This document shows, piece by piece, positions 26,706 to 55,933 of a stretch of DNA of 64,000 nucleotides. Every line of letters begins with the position of its first letter. Within the stretch, counting starts at the first letter, position 1. This DNA is from Candidatus Thiovulum stygium (GTDB lineage: Bacteria; Campylobacterota; Campylobacteria; Campylobacterales; Thiovulaceae), in assembly GCA_021582295.1 (NCBI GenBank), contig CP091137.1:148970-212969 (forward strand). The letters are read 5' to 3'. The position numbers were made by a program, and so were the translations under genes. Under the pieces are notes generated by a model. It did not search any database. It saw only the letters and a list, made by a program, of their open reading frames with translations, and had not been told where the DNA came from.

Positions 26706-27448
26706 TTAAAAAGAGGCTACTATATTTAAGAGTTTTTCAATTTCGATATCAAGAATCTCTTCGTTATATCCTTCAATTCGGAGTTCAACAGTTGGTTTTA
26801 GCGAACCATCTTCAGTAATTATATATTTTGGCAAACTTGAAAGTTCAATATCTTTTGGTAAATTTTTCATCCAATCTATAAAACGATTTTCAGAAAAATT
26901 TACTGTTAAGCTTTTAGAATATCTCTTAATATTATTAATTGGGTAATATTTATCAAGAGCTTCAATAATCATTGGATGAGACATTTCTGGAAAACCTGGA
27001 ACAAAAAAGAATCTTGAATCAATAGAAAATCCACACATCCCATTAATTGGATTATTAAATAATAGTTCTGAATCTTTTGGTAAATATGACATATTTACTC
27101 TATGATTTGAACCATCAATTCCAAAACGAGCATATATTTTTTGACGAAAAATATCATTAAATTCCATTTCTCCATTACGAAAAACATCACCAGCAATATT
27201 TCTTGTTAAATCATCTGGAGTTGAACCAATTCCCCCAAATGAAAAAAATACTGAATCTACTCTATTTTTCAAAAAATGAAAGTGATCTTTAATATCTTGT
27301 TCATTATCTCTAATTATATAAATACCTGATAATTTCCAACCTCTTTTTTGAAGTTCATCTCTTAAAAATTTAAAATGTGCATCTTCACGACGACCAGTTA
27401 AAATTTCTGTGCCAATAATTACTCCAAAAAAGATGGTTTGATTATCAT
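26706..27448 (-). pseudogene. CinA-like / molybdopterin-binding (MoCF_BD) domain protein, 5' end displaced by a -1 frameshift in an A6 run
   Basis: The frame is open upstream of the track ORF (IFFGVIIGTEILTGRREDAHF...GGIGSTPDD) but has no start codon. The ATG at 27448 overlaps the upstream stop as ATGA. It comes into frame if A6 27426-27431 gains one base, giving MIIKPSFFGVIIGTEILTG. Confidence 0.65.
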
Positions 27449-28194
27449 TTTGTGCCTCGTTCTATTTTAAAATTCTCATTATCAATAACTTTTAAATTAT
27501 CATTTGCAAAATATATACCTGCAAATAATACTAAAGAAGCTCCAAATAAAATAGTTTGAACAACTGACAATATTGTTAAAGTTGAAACTTTAGATTTTAA
27601 ATCTTTTGTAACATGTTCTTGTTGATCTTGTAACTCTTTTATTCTTTCCATTGCTTTATTATTTATCGAAACTCCACCTCTAATTTCAATTAGCGATTTT
27701 TTTACAACAGATTCAACTTCTCGTTCTATATTTTTAGCAAATTTATCGTAATTAACTGCTTCTATAATATCTTTCATTCGATGTTCAAGAGCAATTAAAT
27801 TTGAATCAAAAAGCAAAGCTAATTTATCTAATTTATCATCAAATATTTGAGTAATATCTTTAGTAATATCATTTTTAAAACGGTTATGAAAAAGAATCAG
27901 TTCATTATTAATTCTTTCAAGATTGCTAATATCTCGACTAAATTCAGTAACACGAAAATCAAATTGTTCAATTGATTCACGAACACTCTCTTTAGCCACT
28001 TTTTTAAACTCTTCGAGTTCAATTCGCATCAGTTTATGATACTCTTTATTCTCTGATTTAGATAAATCTAGAATATCTTCAAGATTACGAATAACTTCTC
28101 TGTTCGCATATAAAAATGCCCAAATAGGGTCATCTTTATCTACTTTTATATCAAATAATCTAAAAATATCTGCCCTAATTTGTTCAATGTTCAT
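27445..28194 (-). CDS. Coiled-coil protein with C-terminal TM anchor (249 aa)
   Basis: ORF track. Heptad-rich central part and C-terminal hydrophobic segment LTILSVVQTILFGASLVLFAGIYF. Confidence 0.55.
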   Translation of the reverse strand: MNIEQIRADIFRLFDIKVDKDDPIWAFLYANREVIRNLEDILDLSKSENKEYHKLMRIELEEFKKVAKESVRESIEQFDFRVTEFSRDISNLERINNELILFHNRFKNDITKDITQIFDDKLDKLALLFDSNLIALEHRMKDIIEAVNYDKFAKNIEREVESVVKKSLIEIRGGVSINNKAMERIKELQDQQEHVTKDLKSKVSTLTILSVVQTILFGASLVLFAGIYFANDNLKVIDNENFKIERGTK

Positions 28195-28252
28195 ATTATT
28201 TTCTCTCTTATGATCTGTTTGATTAATTGGTGAATTATAAGAATTTATTATG

Positions 28253-28288
28253 CCCCCCCCGATAAATGCCGATATTTCAGGGGGGGGG
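28253..28288. repeat. Inverted homopolymer pair C8 ... G9 (potential 8-bp all-GC hairpin / contingency tract)
   Basis: C8 at 28253-28260 and G9 at 28280-28288, separated by 19 nt. These are the only long G/C runs in the window. Confidence 0.9.
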
Positions 28289-28435
28289 TAGAAGAGGATT
28301 TATTTCTCCTAAACTACTATGATTTTTAAAAGGACTTGCATATTCACTTCTCATTTCGGCAATTGATTTTTTAATGTTTCAGGAGAGATGCCATCATCAA
28401 GACTAAAACTTTTATTAACCATAATATTTTATATA

Positions 28436-29143
28436 TTAAAAGAATCTTGAAAGTTGATCAAAAATATCTTTTTTAAAAATACCAAGTCGTTGAACGGACA
28501 TAGCTCTAAATCTTGTATCACTTTTAATTTCTTCGAAAGAAAGTTTATATTTCAACATGTTTTCAACATCTTTACCAAAGGTATCTTTACTTCGATCACC
28601 TAAAATAACCATACCAAGAATTTTCTCTTTGTTGTTGTTATAGACTTTTGTCTCTTCGAAAGTTTTACCTTCATAAGAAATTGCTCCATAATATAGATTC
28701 TGCCAAACGAAAATATTATTGAAATATTTTGCAAGAACATTTAAACCTTGAAGAGTATCGTTCATACCTTGACCACCTTCAAGAATTGTATGAACAACAA
28801 GAGATTTTCCAGCATCTTGTAACATCCCAATAACCTCATTTTCAACTAAATAGTTAGAAAAAGGAACAAAACTAGAAGCACCATTATCAACAATAATTTG
28901 ATCTGCATCTTCAGTTAAAAAAGCTTCGATTAGAACATCAAGATTTCGTTCGTTAATTTTGCTACCATCCATTAAATCGATTCTTCGAACATTTAAAGCT
29001 TTATATTGCGAAAATGTAGGATTGACACTATCAGTATCAAAAGCAGAAACTTTTTCATATTTAGACATCATATATTGAGTTAATAACGAACTTACGAAAG
29101 TTTTACCAACTCCACCTTTACCTTGTAAAATCAAATGTATCAT
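28436..29143 (-). CDS. ParA/MinD-superfamily P-loop ATPase, IncP TraL-like
   Basis: ILQGKGGVGKT deviant Walker A, YKALNVRR, DNGASSFVP and H..LEGGQ. These resemble RP4 TraL as I recall it. Confidence 0.7.
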   Translation of the reverse strand: MIHLILQGKGGVGKTFVSSLLTQYMMSKYEKVSAFDTDSVNPTFSQYKALNVRRIDLMDGSKINERNLDVLIEAFLTEDADQIIVDNGASSFVPFSNYLVENEVIGMLQDAGKSLVVHTILEGGQGMNDTLQGLNVLAKYFNNIFVWQNLYYGAISYEGKTFEETKVYNNNKEKILGMVILGDRSKDTFGKDVENMLKYKLSFEEIKSDTRFRAMSVQRLGIFKKDIFDQLSRFF

Positions 29144-29375
29144 TTGAAAACCTTTAAATTTTTATTTTCTTGTTGTCAAGTTTATTTTTAATTATAGTCA
29201 AAACATTAACATCAACAATGTTCACTTATTTACTTTAATATTTTACACTATTTAAACTATGCTAAGCTTCAAAAGATAGCTTAAATTAGTTTTTCATCTT
29301 GATAAATATATATCACTATTTAAGATAATGCTATTATACAATCTAAAGTGAATATTTTAAAAAAGGGGTTATAGA

Positions 29376-31692
29376 GTGAATTCAAAAATTTATAGGAAAA
29401 GTCTAATTTTGACTTTAACTATTTTTGTTTTAATTGGAACACTTGGTTCAGCTATGATTTTTTCTATTTTGAATAAAGTCGCTATTCAAATTGGAGAAAG
29501 TTATTTAACAGTTCATACAAATCATCATCAAGAACAGATGGCAAAAATATTAGAAAATGGAGCAAAGATTTCTAATTTATTTTCTGTCAATAAAAATATT
29601 TTGCAATTTATTCAAAATGAATCAAATTTAGAGGCTAAAAATTTAGCTTTTAAAACTCTTAATGAATATGTAAAATTAAGTGATAGCGATGGTTGGTTTA
29701 TAGCTATTCGAGATAGCGAAAATTTTTATTTTAATAATCTAAAAAACGAATTTAGTGGTTCTGAACTTCGTAAAAAATTATTTATTGGAAATGTAGATGA
29801 CATCTGGTTTTATTCTACTTTAGATTCTAATAAATCTTATAATATAAATATAGATTTTGAAAAATCAATTAATGATATAAAAGTTTGGATTAATTATAAA
29901 ATAGTAGATAGCAATGGTAGAGTAATCGCTATTTTTGGTTCAGCTTTTGATTATGAAAGATTTTGGAAAGATTTTTTAGATGAAGAAGATAAAGATTTAA
30001 GAATTATTACTATATTAAAAAATGGAGATATTATTGCACATAAAAATATATCTATGATAAATGAAGATGCTGAATTTTTATCTCAAGATGAAGATAAAAA
30101 AAATATATTTCAGTTTTTTACAAATAGAGATTTTAAATATCAACTTGAAACAGAAATATCAAAATTAAATAGTCAAAGAACTATAAGTTTTATATCTAAA
30201 TTAAATAAAAATGATAAATATGAGAATATTATTTCGGTTTCACTATTATCTTTAAGTAATGTCGAATGGTATATGTTTTCAGCTATGAATTTAGGGTCAA
30301 TTATTGATGAATATAATAAACTTCTAATCGTTTTGATATTTATTTCTATATTTATAACTCTATTTATAATAAATTTAATCTTTATTAAAAGTCAGTTTTT
30401 GAAACCTATTCATGAATTATATGATGTTATTCATGCTATGCGAAGCGGTGAATTAACAAAACGAGTAACAAATTTTAAAGATAGAGAAGATGAAGTTGGT
30501 TCATTAATTCTTGAATTTAATAATATGGTTGATATTGTAGAAAAATATAAAGAACATAGTTCTAAATTATATACACTATTAACAGAAAATATGGCTGATG
30601 TTATTTGGATGATGGATAAACATGGAAATATTTTATATATTTCACCATCTATTGAATATTTAACTGGATATACACAAATGGAAGCAACTCTTCAGAAAAT
30701 TGAAGATAGATATAGTTCAGAATCAGTATCAATTATTTTAGAACATATGCTGAATGCTATTCAGTATAGCGATAGGTAATCTTTTGAAGTGATCTCCAGA
30801 TTTTCCCCCGCTTCATACCGTACGAGCGACTTTCACCGCATACGGCACTCCATCAAGTTTATTAAAATCATTATATTATAAATATTCTAAAAGCAAAATT
30901 CAATATTAAGTTAAAATTAATTCTTAATGTATTACAATATTAAAGATTTAAGTTTATTTAAGTATAAATCAGTTAGATTTGTTTATTTCGTCTAACTAAC
31001 GAATCGCACATCATGAAATTCCAGTTTTAAAACTTAAACAAATACGAAAAAATGGTTCGATAATTTGGGTTGAATTAAATTTAAAAATTAAAATCGATGA
31101 GGTCGAAGGCATTAGATTTATAGGTTCAACTAGAGATATTTCTAATAAACTCGAAATGGAAAAACAGGTTGAAAGATTACTTTTTATCGATTCTTTAACT
31201 GGGCTTGTAAATCTAAAATATTTAATGAATATAATTCAACATCATTTATATAACTTGCAATTAAACGGAGGTTTTGGAGCATTAATCGATATCAATATTG
31301 ATGAATTTAGACATATCAATGAAGCTTATAGTTTTAATGTTGGTGATAACTTATTAATCGACATTAGCAAAAGATTAAAAGATTCTGTTCGCGAATCGGA
31401 TTCAATAGCTCGAATTGGTGGTGATGAATTTTTAGTTTTAGTTGAATATCTTGGTAAAGATTCCAAAATTGCTCCAGAAATTGGTTATTTAATTGCCGAG
31501 AAAATCAAATTTTTTATACAAGAACCTTATAAATTAGAAAATGGTGATACAGTTTATTTAACTTGTAGTATAGGTATAAGAATTTTTAATGCAAATTCTA
31601 ACATCGAAACAATTTTAAAAGATGCAAATTTAGCGATGTTTCAATCAAAACACAATGGAAAAAATTTAATAACTTCGTCGGAGACAATTTAA
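29376..31692 (+). pseudogene. Sensor diguanylate cyclase (TM - periplasmic domain - TM - HAMP - PAS - GGDEF), interrupted inside the PAS domain
   Basis: 29376-30779 encodes TM/HAMP and the N-terminal half of PAS (VIWMMDKHGNILYISPSIEYLTGY). The frame reopens at 31000 (RIAHHEIPVLKLKQIRKNGSIIWVE...DISNK...DSLTGL...GGDEFLVLV). The gap of about 226 bp is foreign sequence. Confidence 0.8.
30774..30999 (-). mobile_element. About 226-bp insertion carrying a group II intron domain-V-like hairpin (5'-truncated intron remnant), antisense to the host gene
   Basis: The minus strand 30848->30815 reads GTGCCGTATGCGGTGAAAGTCGCTCGTACGGTAT. This is 29/34 identical to yeast ai5gamma domain V, with the GAAA tetraloop and the 2-nt bulge. 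The insertion boundaries are inferred from where the host frame breaks and reopens. Confidence 0.6.
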
Positions 31693-53900: not shown

Positions 53901-54623
53901 AAAAACGAAATGAGATTTTGAATAATTGCACCTCATCAGATGAACGAGAACGAACTGAAAAGATTATTAAAGCCAATTTTAAGAGGTAGGGATATTAAAA
54001 GATATGGGTATGAGTGGGCAGGGCTTTGGATAATAGTTGTTAAATTTGGTTTTAATGCTGAGCTTGATAAATATCCAGCAATTTTAGAACATTTAACACA
54101 ATACAAAGAGCAATTAAAAAATCGTGGTCAATGCAGATATTCTCGTGGAGGAATTGGGCAAGGACAACATCATTGGCTTGAACTTGACAATAATCCAAAG
54201 GATTTTTACTTGGATGAGTTTGAAAAAGAGAAGATTGTTTTTAAAGCAATAGGTAAAAATTTAGCTTTTTCAATTGTTAAATCAGGAATTTTTGTTTCAG
54301 CTCCGTCATCGTTTCTAACTTCGCAAAAAAACAAATATATTCTAGGCATACTATCTAGTAAAGTTGTTCAAAGTTATATTTACGATAATTCTGATAGAAC
54401 TGGAGCTGGAGATGTTATGTTAAATATTCAATCTTTTGAAAAAATTCCACTCCCAAAAATATCACAAGAAGAGCAAGAACCATTTGTAAAACTTGTTGAT
54501 GAGATAATGGAGCTAAAAGCGAAAAATGAAGATACAAAAGAATTTGAGAATCAAATCGATGAAATGGTTTATAAACTTTATGGTTTGAGTGAGGATGAGG
54601 TAAAGATTATAAACGGCAAATAA
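50989..54623 (+). pseudogene. Type IIG restriction-modification enzyme (~1200 aa if intact) broken into four collinear frames
   Basis: N-terminal DLAIY...VIIEAKLP nuclease motif, IPYMNSSL(F), VLDPAVGSGHIL (motif I), IIENNLFGVDIN after repair, IIANPPYIRQE (motif IV), a TaqI-like C-terminal part and ...LYGLSEDEVKIINGK. Frame breaks at A8 52102-52109 (-1), A7 52658-52664 (-1) and around 53940-53989 (+1). Confidence 0.8.
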
Positions 54624-55139
54624 GAGAGTTTAAAGCTTTAACCATAAAATTTATCAGGTTTTTGATTAAAGTGTCTAAATTTGGCTAGAAATGTATGTAA
54701 TCGAGCTGTTTGAATCAAATGTTTAAAGCTTTAAGAACAGATTTTAAATTTTGAAAATTTAATTAACGAAGCTATTGATGAGGTAAAGATTATAAACGGC
54801 AAATAAGAGAGTTTAAAGCTTTAACCATAAAAATTATCAGGTTTTTGATTAAAGTGTCTAAATTTGGCTAGAAATGTATGTAATCGAGCTGTTTGAATCA
54901 AATGTTTAAAGCTTTAAGAACAAATTTTAAATTTTGAAAATTTAATTAACGAAGCTATTGATGAGGTAAAGATAATAAACGGCAAATAAGAGAGTTTAAA
55001 GCTTTAACCATAAAATTTATCAGGTTTTTGATTAAAGTGTCTAAATTTGGCTAGAAATGTATGTAATCGAGCTGTTTGAATCAAATGTTTAAAGCTTTAA
55101 GAACAAATTTTAAATTTTCAAAATTTAATTAACGAAGCT
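54594..55139 (+). repeat. Three tandem copies of a 183-bp unit that begins with the last 30 nt of the RM gene
   Basis: gatgaggtaaagat(t/a)ataaacggcaaataagagagtttaaagctttaacc... recurs at 54594, 54777 and 54960. Confidence 0.9.
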
Positions 55140-55195: not shown

Positions 55196-55933
55196 TTGAG
55201 TTTATATGAACTATTAGAAAACTTAACTCTTGAAGATATTGAAAAACTTCGCGAACTGAAATTAAAAGAGATTCAGCAATTACCAACTTTCTCATTTTCT
55301 AAAATTAGGTTTTCAGATTTAAAGCGATTTTTTAAAATAGAGCAGAATATCAATATTTCGAATTGTTTTGAGAATTGGTTTAATTCTGATATTGAAATCC
55401 AAGAAAATATATCTAAGTTTTTAGAAAACTTGATTTTAAAGAACAGAGGTTTAATTCAGAATTATAATGAAGAGGATTTGAAAATACATTTTTTATCGCC
55501 TCTTTTCTATCAAATAGATTTTAAATCTTTCGAGAAAAAGTATCGCGATTTTTATAATGAGAAGATTCGTTATGAAAACGATAAGCTGGTTTTAAGCGGA
55601 GAGGTTGATTTTGTTTTGGCAAAAGGTCTTTACGAGAGCGAAACACCATATTTTTTTATTCAGGAGTTTAAAAAAGGTGTTGAGTTTTCAGATCCTCGTC
55701 CGCAACTTGTTGCCGAATTGATTGCAGGTTTGGAAATTTCTAATTTTAAAAATATCAAAGGTGCTTATATTATTGGTTCTATTTGGAATTTCGTATTTTT
55801 AGAAAAAATTGAAAAAGATAGTTATCGATATTATGTTTCTGAAAATTTCGATAGTTCAAAAATAGGAGATTTGAATCTTATTTATAAAAATTTGCTATTT
55901 GTAAAAAAAGAGATCGAAGAATTATTAAAATAA
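55196..55933 (+). CDS. PD-(D/E)xK nuclease-like protein (type I R-subunit N-terminal domain-like)
   Basis: GEVDFVLAKG ... FFIQEFKKG fits the D...ExK motif and spacing. TTG start; 245 aa. Confidence 0.5.
   Translation: MSLYELLENLTLEDIEKLRELKLKEIQQLPTFSFSKIRFSDLKRFFKIEQNINISNCFENWFNSDIEIQENISKFLENLILKNRGLIQNYNEEDLKIHFLSPLFYQIDFKSFEKKYRDFYNEKIRYENDKLVLSGEVDFVLAKGLYESETPYFFIQEFKKGVEFSDPRPQLVAELIAGLEISNFKNIKGAYIIGSIWNFVFLEKIEKDSYRYYVSENFDSSKIGDLNLIYKNLLFVKKEIEELLK

Follow-up and report, generated by a model that had tools for sequence, protein, structure and literature searches.

A complementary pair of homopolymer tracts in an operon leader of Candidatus Thiovulum stygium: a possible hypervariable locus

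A 64-kb stretch of the genome of Candidatus Thiovulum stygium (contig CP091137.1; this whole stretch is termed the window, and its numbering is used throughout) contains two complementary homopolymer tracts in the spacer between a traL-like gene and a gene for a protein of 249 amino acids (aa). The tract pair is tentatively interpreted, with somewhat less than an even chance of being right, as a hypervariable homopolymer locus in an intra-operon leader, which a Thiovulum sub-lineage would have acquired between two genes that had once been translationally coupled. The observations in its favor include the differing lengths of the G run between lineages and among near-identical strains, the conservation of the tracts' surroundings, the derived character of the spacer, and the arrangement of the reading frames around the tracts.

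The tract pair and its length

On the forward strand, the tracts are C8 (28253-28260) and G9 (28280-28288), and the gap between them is 19 nucleotides (nt; GATAAATGCCGATATTTCA). All local genes are on the minus strand, and the order on the messenger RNA (mRNA) is C9, a 19-nt loop, and G8. The C9 is the 5' arm of a predicted hairpin and encodes Pro-Pro-Pro in a short open reading frame (ORF), called ORF2 and described below. The G8 is the 3' arm; it is the length-variable tract that is conserved in relatives, and the 249-aa gene starts 58 nt downstream of it (ATG at 28194). The loop (28261-28279, minus strand; UGAAAUAUCGGCAUUUAUC) features an inner AAAU/AUUU stem and contains the stop codon of ORF2. 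An earlier note on this DNA had given the positions and spacing of the tracts and had called them the only long G/C runs of the 64 kb. A run count confirmed all of this; besides these two, every G or C run in the window was 5 nt or shorter. The G+C content of the window is 27.7%, and under a model of independent, identically distributed bases the expected numbers in the window are 0.002 for G runs of at least 9 nt and 0.005 for C runs of at least 8 nt.

The genome of Candidatus Thiovulum stygium from Movile Cave is closed (1.72 Mb, 28% G+C) and was assembled from R9 nanopore reads with a 12x Illumina polish (PMC9938260). Two contigs (L003 and L004) were available from Logan short-read assemblies of SRR17084643 and SRR17084642, respectively. 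They are 99.4% identical to the window and match its spacer exactly, C9/G8 included. Because these independent short-read contigs give the same lengths, the tract lengths are not a long-read artifact. Nor are the contigs copies of the assembly, since the third gene of the operon (a cinA-like gene) has T7 in both of them and T6 in the window. A nanopore contig of the same strain with C6/G6 (L025) was rejected as an instance of tract variation; its coverage is 1.4x, and it has 12 homopolymer deletions elsewhere.

Conservation and variation of the tracts

Relatives of the 249-aa protein are found in Thiovulum-like Campylobacterota. In one of them (L002; 249-aa protein 70% identical to that of the window), the spacer contains a called 62-aa ORF, MENYDFFTNGLSEKTLEKIKKNKTLEISSPKKTQNPPMESNLSHINPLLSPEISTFLGGGGA, followed by a stop codon. 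In another (L018; 61% identical), it contains a 48-aa ORF ending in PHETDILGGGSGNSPSFTNK and a stop codon. A conserved spacer core was delimited in the window at 28234-28303 (minus strand), comprising ATAAATCCTCTTCTA, the C run, the loop, the G run, and CATAATAAATTCTTATAAT. By blastn, window positions 28234-28303 aligned to L002 and to nothing else in the spacer core region. Outside the tracts, 49 of the 55 core positions (89%) are identical between the window and L002, the blocks being ATAAATCCTCTTCTA, the C run, GAAATATCGRCATTTMTC, the G run, and CATAAnnAATTCTTATAAT; in the loop, the count is 16 of 18. The rest of the spacer (its 5' half) is ca. 45% identical, with many gaps. The core conservation runs 19 nt past the stop codon of the small ORF of L002 and includes a TATAAT hexamer, which argues for a constraint beyond the small peptide alone. 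A codon-position argument for constraint at the nucleotide level was set aside as too weak by itself (11 of 12 third positions identical, background 0.68, P ~0.07). The L018 core was taken to be homologous on the basis of its identical genomic position, its C4-N17-G9 layout, and a short shared motif; the pairwise alignment of L002 and L018 was significant (z = 3.7).

Across lineages, the core has the layout C(4-9), 17-19 nt, G(8-13). The tracts are C9 and G8 in the window, C4 and G13 in L002, and C4 and G9 in L018. Four contigs of the L018 lineage, drawn from four Joint Genome Institute (JGI) metagenomes and with flanks that are 97-100% identical, have G9, G9, G10, and an interrupted G5AG6 (GGGGGAGGGGGG). 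Predicted peptides of this lineage are present in the protein database in 48-aa, 53-aa (frameshifted), and 49-aa forms. In this cluster, the “KN” allele and the “KQ” allele of the ORF are each seen with the G9-type tail and with the frameshifted tail, a distribution that points to recurrent slippage rather than to a single event.

The earlier note had suggested a contingency tract and had asked whether the pair is conserved in relatives. The contingency idea is strengthened by the comparison, as the G run varies between lineages (8, 13, and 9 nt) and between near-identical strains, although no variation was seen in the window lineage. A G run of at least 8 nt is present in L002 and L018, where the C run is C4, and the element is deleted in a third relative, L001. 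The all-GC pairing of 8 base pairs (bp) that the note had described is, like C9, specific to the window lineage; the relatives have only C4 opposite G9-G13.

Origin of the spacer

The distance from the traL-like stop codon to the ATG of the 249-aa gene is 2-10 nt in nine relatives (L007-L013, L019, and L021). For this reason, the 241-bp spacer of the window is regarded as a derived, lineage-specific insertion into a coupled gene pair; longer spacers are found in some lineages only. In L001, which is nearest to the window among relatives with another spacer (89% protein and 97% nucleotide identity), ca. 170 bp are missing (~28212-28382), both tracts included. A contig from Frasassi Cave, taken from the supplement of the Thiovulum paper, has the same 76-nt spacing as L001. 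A blastn search for repeated elements in the window and 25 related loci located copies of the spacer nowhere but at the orthologous position.

The same junction in Ca. Thiovulum imperiosus (L006; JAMJTW010000031.1, 2838-3000) has a GGGGA-CTCT-TCCCC hairpin and then a 43-aa ORF that starts MKFIDFCAGIGGGHLGLEQ and reads MKFIDFCAGIGGGH. This ORF matches positions 1-33 of the Pfam family DNA_methylase, PF00145 (E = 2.3e-6; 27.7 bits, with a cut-off of 22), and by that match it is the 5' stump of a cytosine-5 methyltransferase gene. No match to motif I of PF00145 was obtained with the spacer peptides of the window, L002, or L018, and the similarity of the window or L002 spacer to that of L006 was not significant (z = 0.4-0.6). 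An origin of the window spacer as a methyltransferase remnant is still attractive but was set aside on these two counts.

G/C-rich hairpins at the junction of the traL-like and 249-aa genes differ independently by lineage. They are GGGACA-TTTAAAG-TGTCCC followed by a T run in L014/L015, GGGAGA-GTTA-TCTCCC in L017, and GGGGAGT-GGAA-ACTCCCC in L018, where the G tract is the 5' arm. The junction seems to attract or need a stem-loop.

Short reading frames and the consequences of tract length

Two short ORFs precede the 249-aa gene on the minus strand. ORF1 (28351-28422; 23 aa; MVNKSFSLDDGISPETLKNQLPK, then a stop codon) starts 13 nt past the traL-like stop. By sequence comparison, it resembles the N-terminus of the 62-aa ORF of L002, and it is viewed as the 5' remnant of a small ORF. 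Its TGA overlaps the ATG of ORF2 (ATGA). ORF2 (28277-28354; 25 aa; MRSEYASPFKNHSSLGEINPLLPPP, then a stop codon) is the “leader” of the earlier note, which had it open at ATG 28354 and end right after the C9 tract; this was found to be correct, with the UGA directly following C9 and the end at 28277. The ORF2 segment INPLL.P is homologous to INPLLSP of the small ORF of L002, and by this homology ORF2 is the middle and 3' part of an ancestral small ORF. The notion that it is a leader peptide in its own right was discarded: relatives have the small ORF intact, and ORF2 corresponds to the 3' half of it, now out of frame. The window thus has the small ORF in pieces: ORF1 in frame 0, ORF2 in frame 2, and a tail, EISAFIGGG, back in frame 0.

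The earlier note had described the reading frame of the downstream gene as open through both tracts to 28299. Indeed, a stop-free stretch of 35 codons without a start codon is present in that frame (28195-28299, minus strand). The effects of changes in tract length were predicted by editing the sequences in silico. The two outcomes that had been foreseen for the window were reproduced: the loss of one C (C8/G8) fuses ORF2 to the 249-aa protein, yielding 302 aa with the junction ...PPPEISAFIGGGIINSYNSPINQTDHKRENN-MNIEQ..., and the gain of one C (C10/G8) produces a different short tail, ...PPPLKYRHLSGGA (i.e. ...LKYRHLSGGA and a stop codon). With C9, translation stops after the tract in every case. 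For L002, G11 or G14 fuses the 62-aa ORF to the 249-aa gene, and G12 and G13 lead to stops 28 and 32 nt upstream of the ATG, respectively. For L018, fusion results from G8 or G11, and the stops are 25 nt (G9) and 11 nt (G10) upstream of the ATG. At G9, a second ATG of L018 (MKPIFSGGG...) also shares the frame of the gene; the 276-aa form that results has been called by one gene-finding program. In the window, L002, and L018 alike, one tract phase of three joins the upstream ORF to the 249-aa gene.

In the window, L002, and L018, stop codons interrupt every frame from the G run to the ATG except that of the gene itself. The shuffle probabilities for this open frame are 0.14, 0.32, and 0.21; their product is ~0.01, with the proviso that the window and L002 are not independent. 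Predicted peptides at the fusion junctions include EISAFIGGGIINSYNSPINQTDHK in the window lineage and PIFSGGGVETPHLSQTSK in the L018 lineage.

Transcription and RNA structure

A promoter-like site (29333-29361, minus strand) with the sequence TTTAAA-17-TATAAT matches the consensus at 10 of 12 positions, and the start inferred from it is 29326. Both L003 and L004 begin at 29326, which is 7 nt past the -10 hexamer of the TGTATAAT box, and both carry a non-templated 5' G or GGGAGG. They span both tracts and end at 26716 and 26817, respectively, near the end of the cinA-like gene. The kit used to prepare the complementary DNA (cDNA) libraries from Movile Cave attaches tails to the ends of single-stranded cDNA (PMC9938260). 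Given the non-templated 5' ends and this library kit, we infer that L003 and L004 are cDNA of the transcript of a three-gene operon; if so, transcription reads through both tracts. A term search of the supplementary files of the Thiovulum paper returned no expression values, i.e. reads per kilobase per million mapped reads (RPKM).

The predicted energy of the hairpin is -20.1 kcal/mol on the mRNA strand and -23.6 kcal/mol on the forward strand (z = -2.5 for the latter). A terminator scan of 27300-29500 returned zero terminator-like sites; the tail of the hairpin is CAUAAUAAAUUC, with no U tract. The terminator role that had been proposed for the hairpin is not supported, because it has no U tail and because the cDNA-like contigs are continuous across it, the latter being a qualitative observation. 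No covariation was detected in the stem among five sequences. Rfam searches returned nothing credible at the tracts, whether performed permissively on 27000-31500 or at the gathering threshold on the whole window; there was one chance match of 20 bits. As for a C-rich pairing partner, no other C-rich run is present in the window, and no Rfam small RNA was identified. A TATAAT hexamer (28234-28239, minus strand) is located 13 nt downstream of the G run, is conserved in L002, and is a candidate internal -10 box. The promoter scan omits it because there is no -35 match.

Proposed mechanism and points that weigh against it

In the proposed mechanism, a single mRNA would carry the traL-like gene, the spacer, the 249-aa gene, and the cinA-like gene, as suggested by the cDNA-like contigs. 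Ribosomes that have passed the traL-like gene would re-enter at ORF1, 13 nt on, and then at ORF2 by way of the ATGA overlap. Replication slippage in the G run, and in the window lineage also in the C run, would shift the frame and set the position at which the ribosomes stop. In the sequenced state (C9/G8), they would stop at the UGA in the hairpin loop. In other phases, the stop would come 40 or 53 nt ahead of the 249-aa start codon, and in one phase of three there would be read-through into that gene, giving an N-terminally extended protein of ca. 302 aa. Because the 249-aa gene keeps its own start, fusion would lengthen the protein at its N-terminus and would not serve to turn the gene on. 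The tract lengths would also set the strength of the C-run:G-run stem-loop (~-20 kcal/mol), which may be a cis counterpart of the RepG-tlpB pairing of Helicobacter pylori. The net effect would be a heritable, reversible tuning of the translation of the 249-aa and cinA-like genes relative to that of the traL-like gene.

A more elaborate proposal, which is considered quite unlikely, is that the two complementary homopolymers in cis, each mutable independently of the other, constitute a self-contained switch, acting both through the strength of the leader stem and through the frame of a short-ORF relay that took the place of the ancestral termination-reinitiation junction. We know of no described short-ORF relay whose endpoint is set by a mutable tract, and the relay invoked here is our own inference. 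If the proposal were correct, sub-populations would differ in the amount or the N-terminal extension of the partner protein of the ParA-like ATPase, and templated correction against an older G run would have produced the C run. As a contingency locus, it would also be the first to be described from an uncultured giant sulfur oxidizer that is free-living.

A number of points weigh against the interpretation as a hypervariable leader locus. L001 has lost the whole element yet keeps its operon intact, which shows the element to be dispensable. The small ORF is no longer whole in the window, where it is split, or in L001, where it is destroyed, and in no assembly examined is it fused from its own ATG to the 249-aa gene. 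No tract-length variation was seen in the window lineage, as the window, L003, and L004 are all C9/G8. The alignment of the window with L018 is not significant (z = 1.4). In the relatives, C4 alone is available for pairing, and the stem shows no covariation. Finally, homopolymer lengths in metagenome consensus sequences carry some risk of error.

Alternative explanations

The alternative that survives best, although it is judged rather unlikely, is that the spacer is a decaying, functionless remnant of an inserted small gene whose tracts drift by neutral slippage. The inserted gene was possibly the 5' end of a cytosine-5 DNA methyltransferase, the Gly-rich motif I of which would have given rise to the G run; the C run may then have grown by templated (quasi-palindrome) correction against the G run. 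Decay of this kind would accord with the broken small ORF in the window and the disappearance of the element from L001. The DNA_methylase-matching 43-aa ORF of L006 occupies the very same junction, and the corresponding frame of L018 reads MKPIFSGGGV. However, a core that is 89% identical in a spacer that is otherwise ca. 45% identical does not look like neutral decay, and a G run of at least 8 nt has been kept in three lineages whose genomes otherwise avoid such runs. The link to a methyltransferase is further undercut by the lack of significant similarity to the L006 spacer and of any Pfam match for the window, L002, and L018 peptides.

It is also unlikely that the element is a structured RNA in which a stem and a conserved loop serve mRNA processing, stability, or partial attenuation, with the length changes being noise. 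Such an element would determine how strongly the traL-like gene is expressed relative to the genes downstream. The conservation of the core beyond any ORF fits this explanation, as does the strength of the hairpin (-20 to -24 kcal/mol), and unrelated G/C-rich hairpins are found at the same junction in L014/L015, L017, L018, and L006. There is also a parallel in Haemophilus influenzae, in which a structure in the 5' untranslated region (5'-UTR), processed by RNase III, is reported to be needed for repeat-driven phase variation (PMC12721329). Against this explanation stand the missing U tail, the empty terminator scan, and the cDNA-like contigs that are unbroken across the hairpin. The stem in the relatives is only 4 bp long, and a fixed stem has no need of strain-variable homopolymers of 8-13 nt.

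Very doubtful is a third explanation, that of a promoter-linked tract or an antisense small RNA. The TATAAT would be an internal promoter of the 249-aa gene, with the tract length moving an upstream element; alternatively, the core would encode a short hairpin RNA on the forward strand. Homopolymer tracts located in promoters are classical in Neisseria porA and opc, and this precedent speaks for the promoter version, together with the perfect TATAAT (28239-28234) in the conserved 3' block of the window and L002. Yet this hexamer has no -35 match and is not called by the promoter scan, it is not conserved in L018, and transcription, as seen in the cDNA-like contigs, is already accounted for by the upstream promoter. 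The antisense version draws on the greater stability of the forward-strand fold (-23.6 kcal/mol, z = -2.5), but no Rfam family was matched at the gathering score in this region, and neither strand has a terminator-like tail.

That the tract lengths, or the tracts, are nanopore assembly errors is scarcely credible and largely refuted: the R9 assembly with its 12x Illumina polish (PMC9938260), the T6-versus-T7 frameshift in the cinA-like gene of the window, and the compression of the tracts to C6/G6 in L025 would allow for it, but C9/G8 recurs in L003 and L004, both with T7 in the cinA-like gene, and homologous tracts are present in unrelated metagenomes.

Comparison with known systems

If the tracts are indeed a hypervariable leader locus, the locus is a variant of the homopolymer hypervariable loci of the Campylobacterota, and its notable points are the complementary pair, the position in an operon leader, and the free-living, sulfur-oxidizing host. 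Homopolymer contingency loci are, to our knowledge, known almost entirely from host-associated Campylobacterota and other pathogens, where they diversify surface structures and restriction-modification systems. The poly-G:C tracts of Campylobacter jejuni are reported, in the work of Parkhill and colleagues in 2000 and later, to split or merge adjacent ORFs, e.g. cj0031/cj0032. The resemblance consists in G/C homopolymers of 8-13 nt in an AT-rich genome that is otherwise without them, and in a tract length that decides whether neighboring ORFs are joined. In C. jejuni, however, the tracts are in genuine coding regions, mostly of surface-structure or restriction-modification genes, and are ON/OFF switches; in Thiovulum, a very short ORF that has partly decayed takes the upstream place, and the conserved start of the downstream gene is retained.

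A gap of 2-10 nt between stop and start codons is the arrangement expected for termination-reinitiation coupling. The locus resembles such systems in its ancestral gap of this size and in the ATGA overlaps at the ORF1/ORF2 junction and at the junction of the 249-aa and cinA-like genes. It resembles a Rho-independent terminator or attenuator in having a G/C-rich stem-loop between cistrons, but the Thiovulum stem has no U tract, has a 19-nt loop, and is read through by transcript-like contigs.

The closest precedent is the leader of tlpB-hp0102 in H. pylori, in which the small RNA RepG pairs through its C/U-rich loop with a G-repeat that differs in length between strains; 7-12 G lead to repression and at least 14 G to activation (PMC8295292). 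Both systems belong to Campylobacterota, and both have a G run (~6-16 nt) of strain-variable length in a transcribed leader upstream of the regulated (in Thiovulum, putatively regulated) cistron(s), along with a C-rich RNA segment that is available for pairing with that run; graded output is a feature of H. pylori. They differ in that the C-rich partner in Thiovulum is in cis, 17-19 nt upstream, and in the window lineage is itself a slippage-prone C9. Moreover, the Thiovulum leader is intra-operon and overlaps short ORFs, making frame effects and fusion possible, and no trans-acting small RNA was found. The H. influenzae system shares with Thiovulum an intergenic or leader repeat and a leader RNA structure (PMC12721329). 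Its repeat is of another type and its substrate is a long double-stranded RNA, whereas the 8-bp stem of Thiovulum is short for RNase III.

Thiovulum is a free-living sulfur oxidizer of caves and marine habitats, and the tract is located inside a conserved, housekeeping-type operon (ParA-like ATPase, helical membrane protein, and CinA-like protein). Should the tract be functional, stochastic switching would operate outside of host-pathogen conflict. The C and G runs, paired in cis, would further offer a natural analogue, within one molecule, of the interaction between RepG and the G-repeat. The locus is also a ready marker of strain-level population structure in Thiovulum metagenomes. For annotators it is a warning, as the called length of the gene depends on tract length and start choice: gene callers give 248-, 267-, and 276-aa versions of the 249-aa gene.

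Genes of the operon and other features of the window

The first gene of the operon is the traL-like gene (28436-29143, minus strand), which encodes a ParA/MinD-family P-loop ATPase of 235 aa with matches to the Pfam families CbiA and ParA. Its score against the NCBIfam model PRK13886 (TraL) is 261 bits, under the curated cut-off of 360. The gene is chromosomal and is present in every relative examined. The neighbors of the trio (the traL-like, 249-aa, and cinA-like genes) are a GGDEF sensor, a TPR protein, and a porin, in addition to the cinA-like gene itself, and the same set recurs in the relatives. Because the trio is chromosomal and beside housekeeping genes in every relative, this is not a conjugation region, and the conjugation context that the name TraL had suggested was not borne out. 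A plasmid or conjugation origin was likewise rejected; by tblastn, the 249-aa protein had no match in 72,556 plasmids. The trio is conserved and tightly packed across Thiovulum-like genomes and is reminiscent of ParA-type ATPases with partner proteins.

The 249-aa gene (27445-28194, minus strand) encodes an all-helical protein with a C-terminal hydrophobic helix. The family comprises 21 homologs, all of ~250 aa and all starting at MNIE. The first 32 residues are the most conserved part; the N-terminus reads MNIEEIRADIFRLFD..DKDDPIWAFLYANRE in the window, and the family start is MNIEEIRADIF...DKDDPIWAFLYANRE. When a conceptual 325-aa fusion was used as the query, the 21 homologs covered the 249-aa part only, and an N-terminal extension was rejected as a trait of the family. 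No Pfam or NCBIfam family was matched by the protein. A profile search of the PDB returned apolipoprotein-like helices only, and the AlphaFold2 (AF2) model consists of two long helices with a predicted template-modeling score (pTM) of 0.30. Within this gene, a patch at 27783-27978 contains 13 of the 15 differences between the window and L003 and 13 of the 14 between the window and L004, most of them amino-acid changes. The alleles are RESIEQ..TEFSRDISNLER..TKDIT in the window and RQSIEQ..TQFSQDIENLKR..TNNVT in L003; the 13 differences are the same in L004. From its sequence, the patch resembles a segment that has recombined or is diversifying, two alleles of which would be present in the population.

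The third gene, the cinA-like gene (26706-27448, minus strand), has a MoCF_biosynth domain and begins with an ATG that overlaps the 249-aa stop codon. It is frameshifted in the window, with T6 at ~27425-27431 as compared to T7 in L003, L004, and L001, and its ORF is 188 aa long as compared to 245-247 aa in relatives. The frameshift is probably a residual long-read homopolymer error; otherwise, it marks a true pseudogene.

Two features lie elsewhere in the window. A match to group II intron domain V/VI (Rfam RF00029; 53.6 bits, gathering score 40) was found at 30766-30850 on the minus strand, antisense, in a ~375-bp gap (30780-31155). This gap splits a HAMP-PAS-GGDEF gene (29376-30779 and 31156-31692) that is uninterrupted in L001 and L002. 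The matched piece falls short of a complete intron and probably represents a remnant. A tandem repeat at 54594-55139 consists of three 183-bp units with 98% matches and is intergenic between ORFs at 53940-54623 and 55196-55933.

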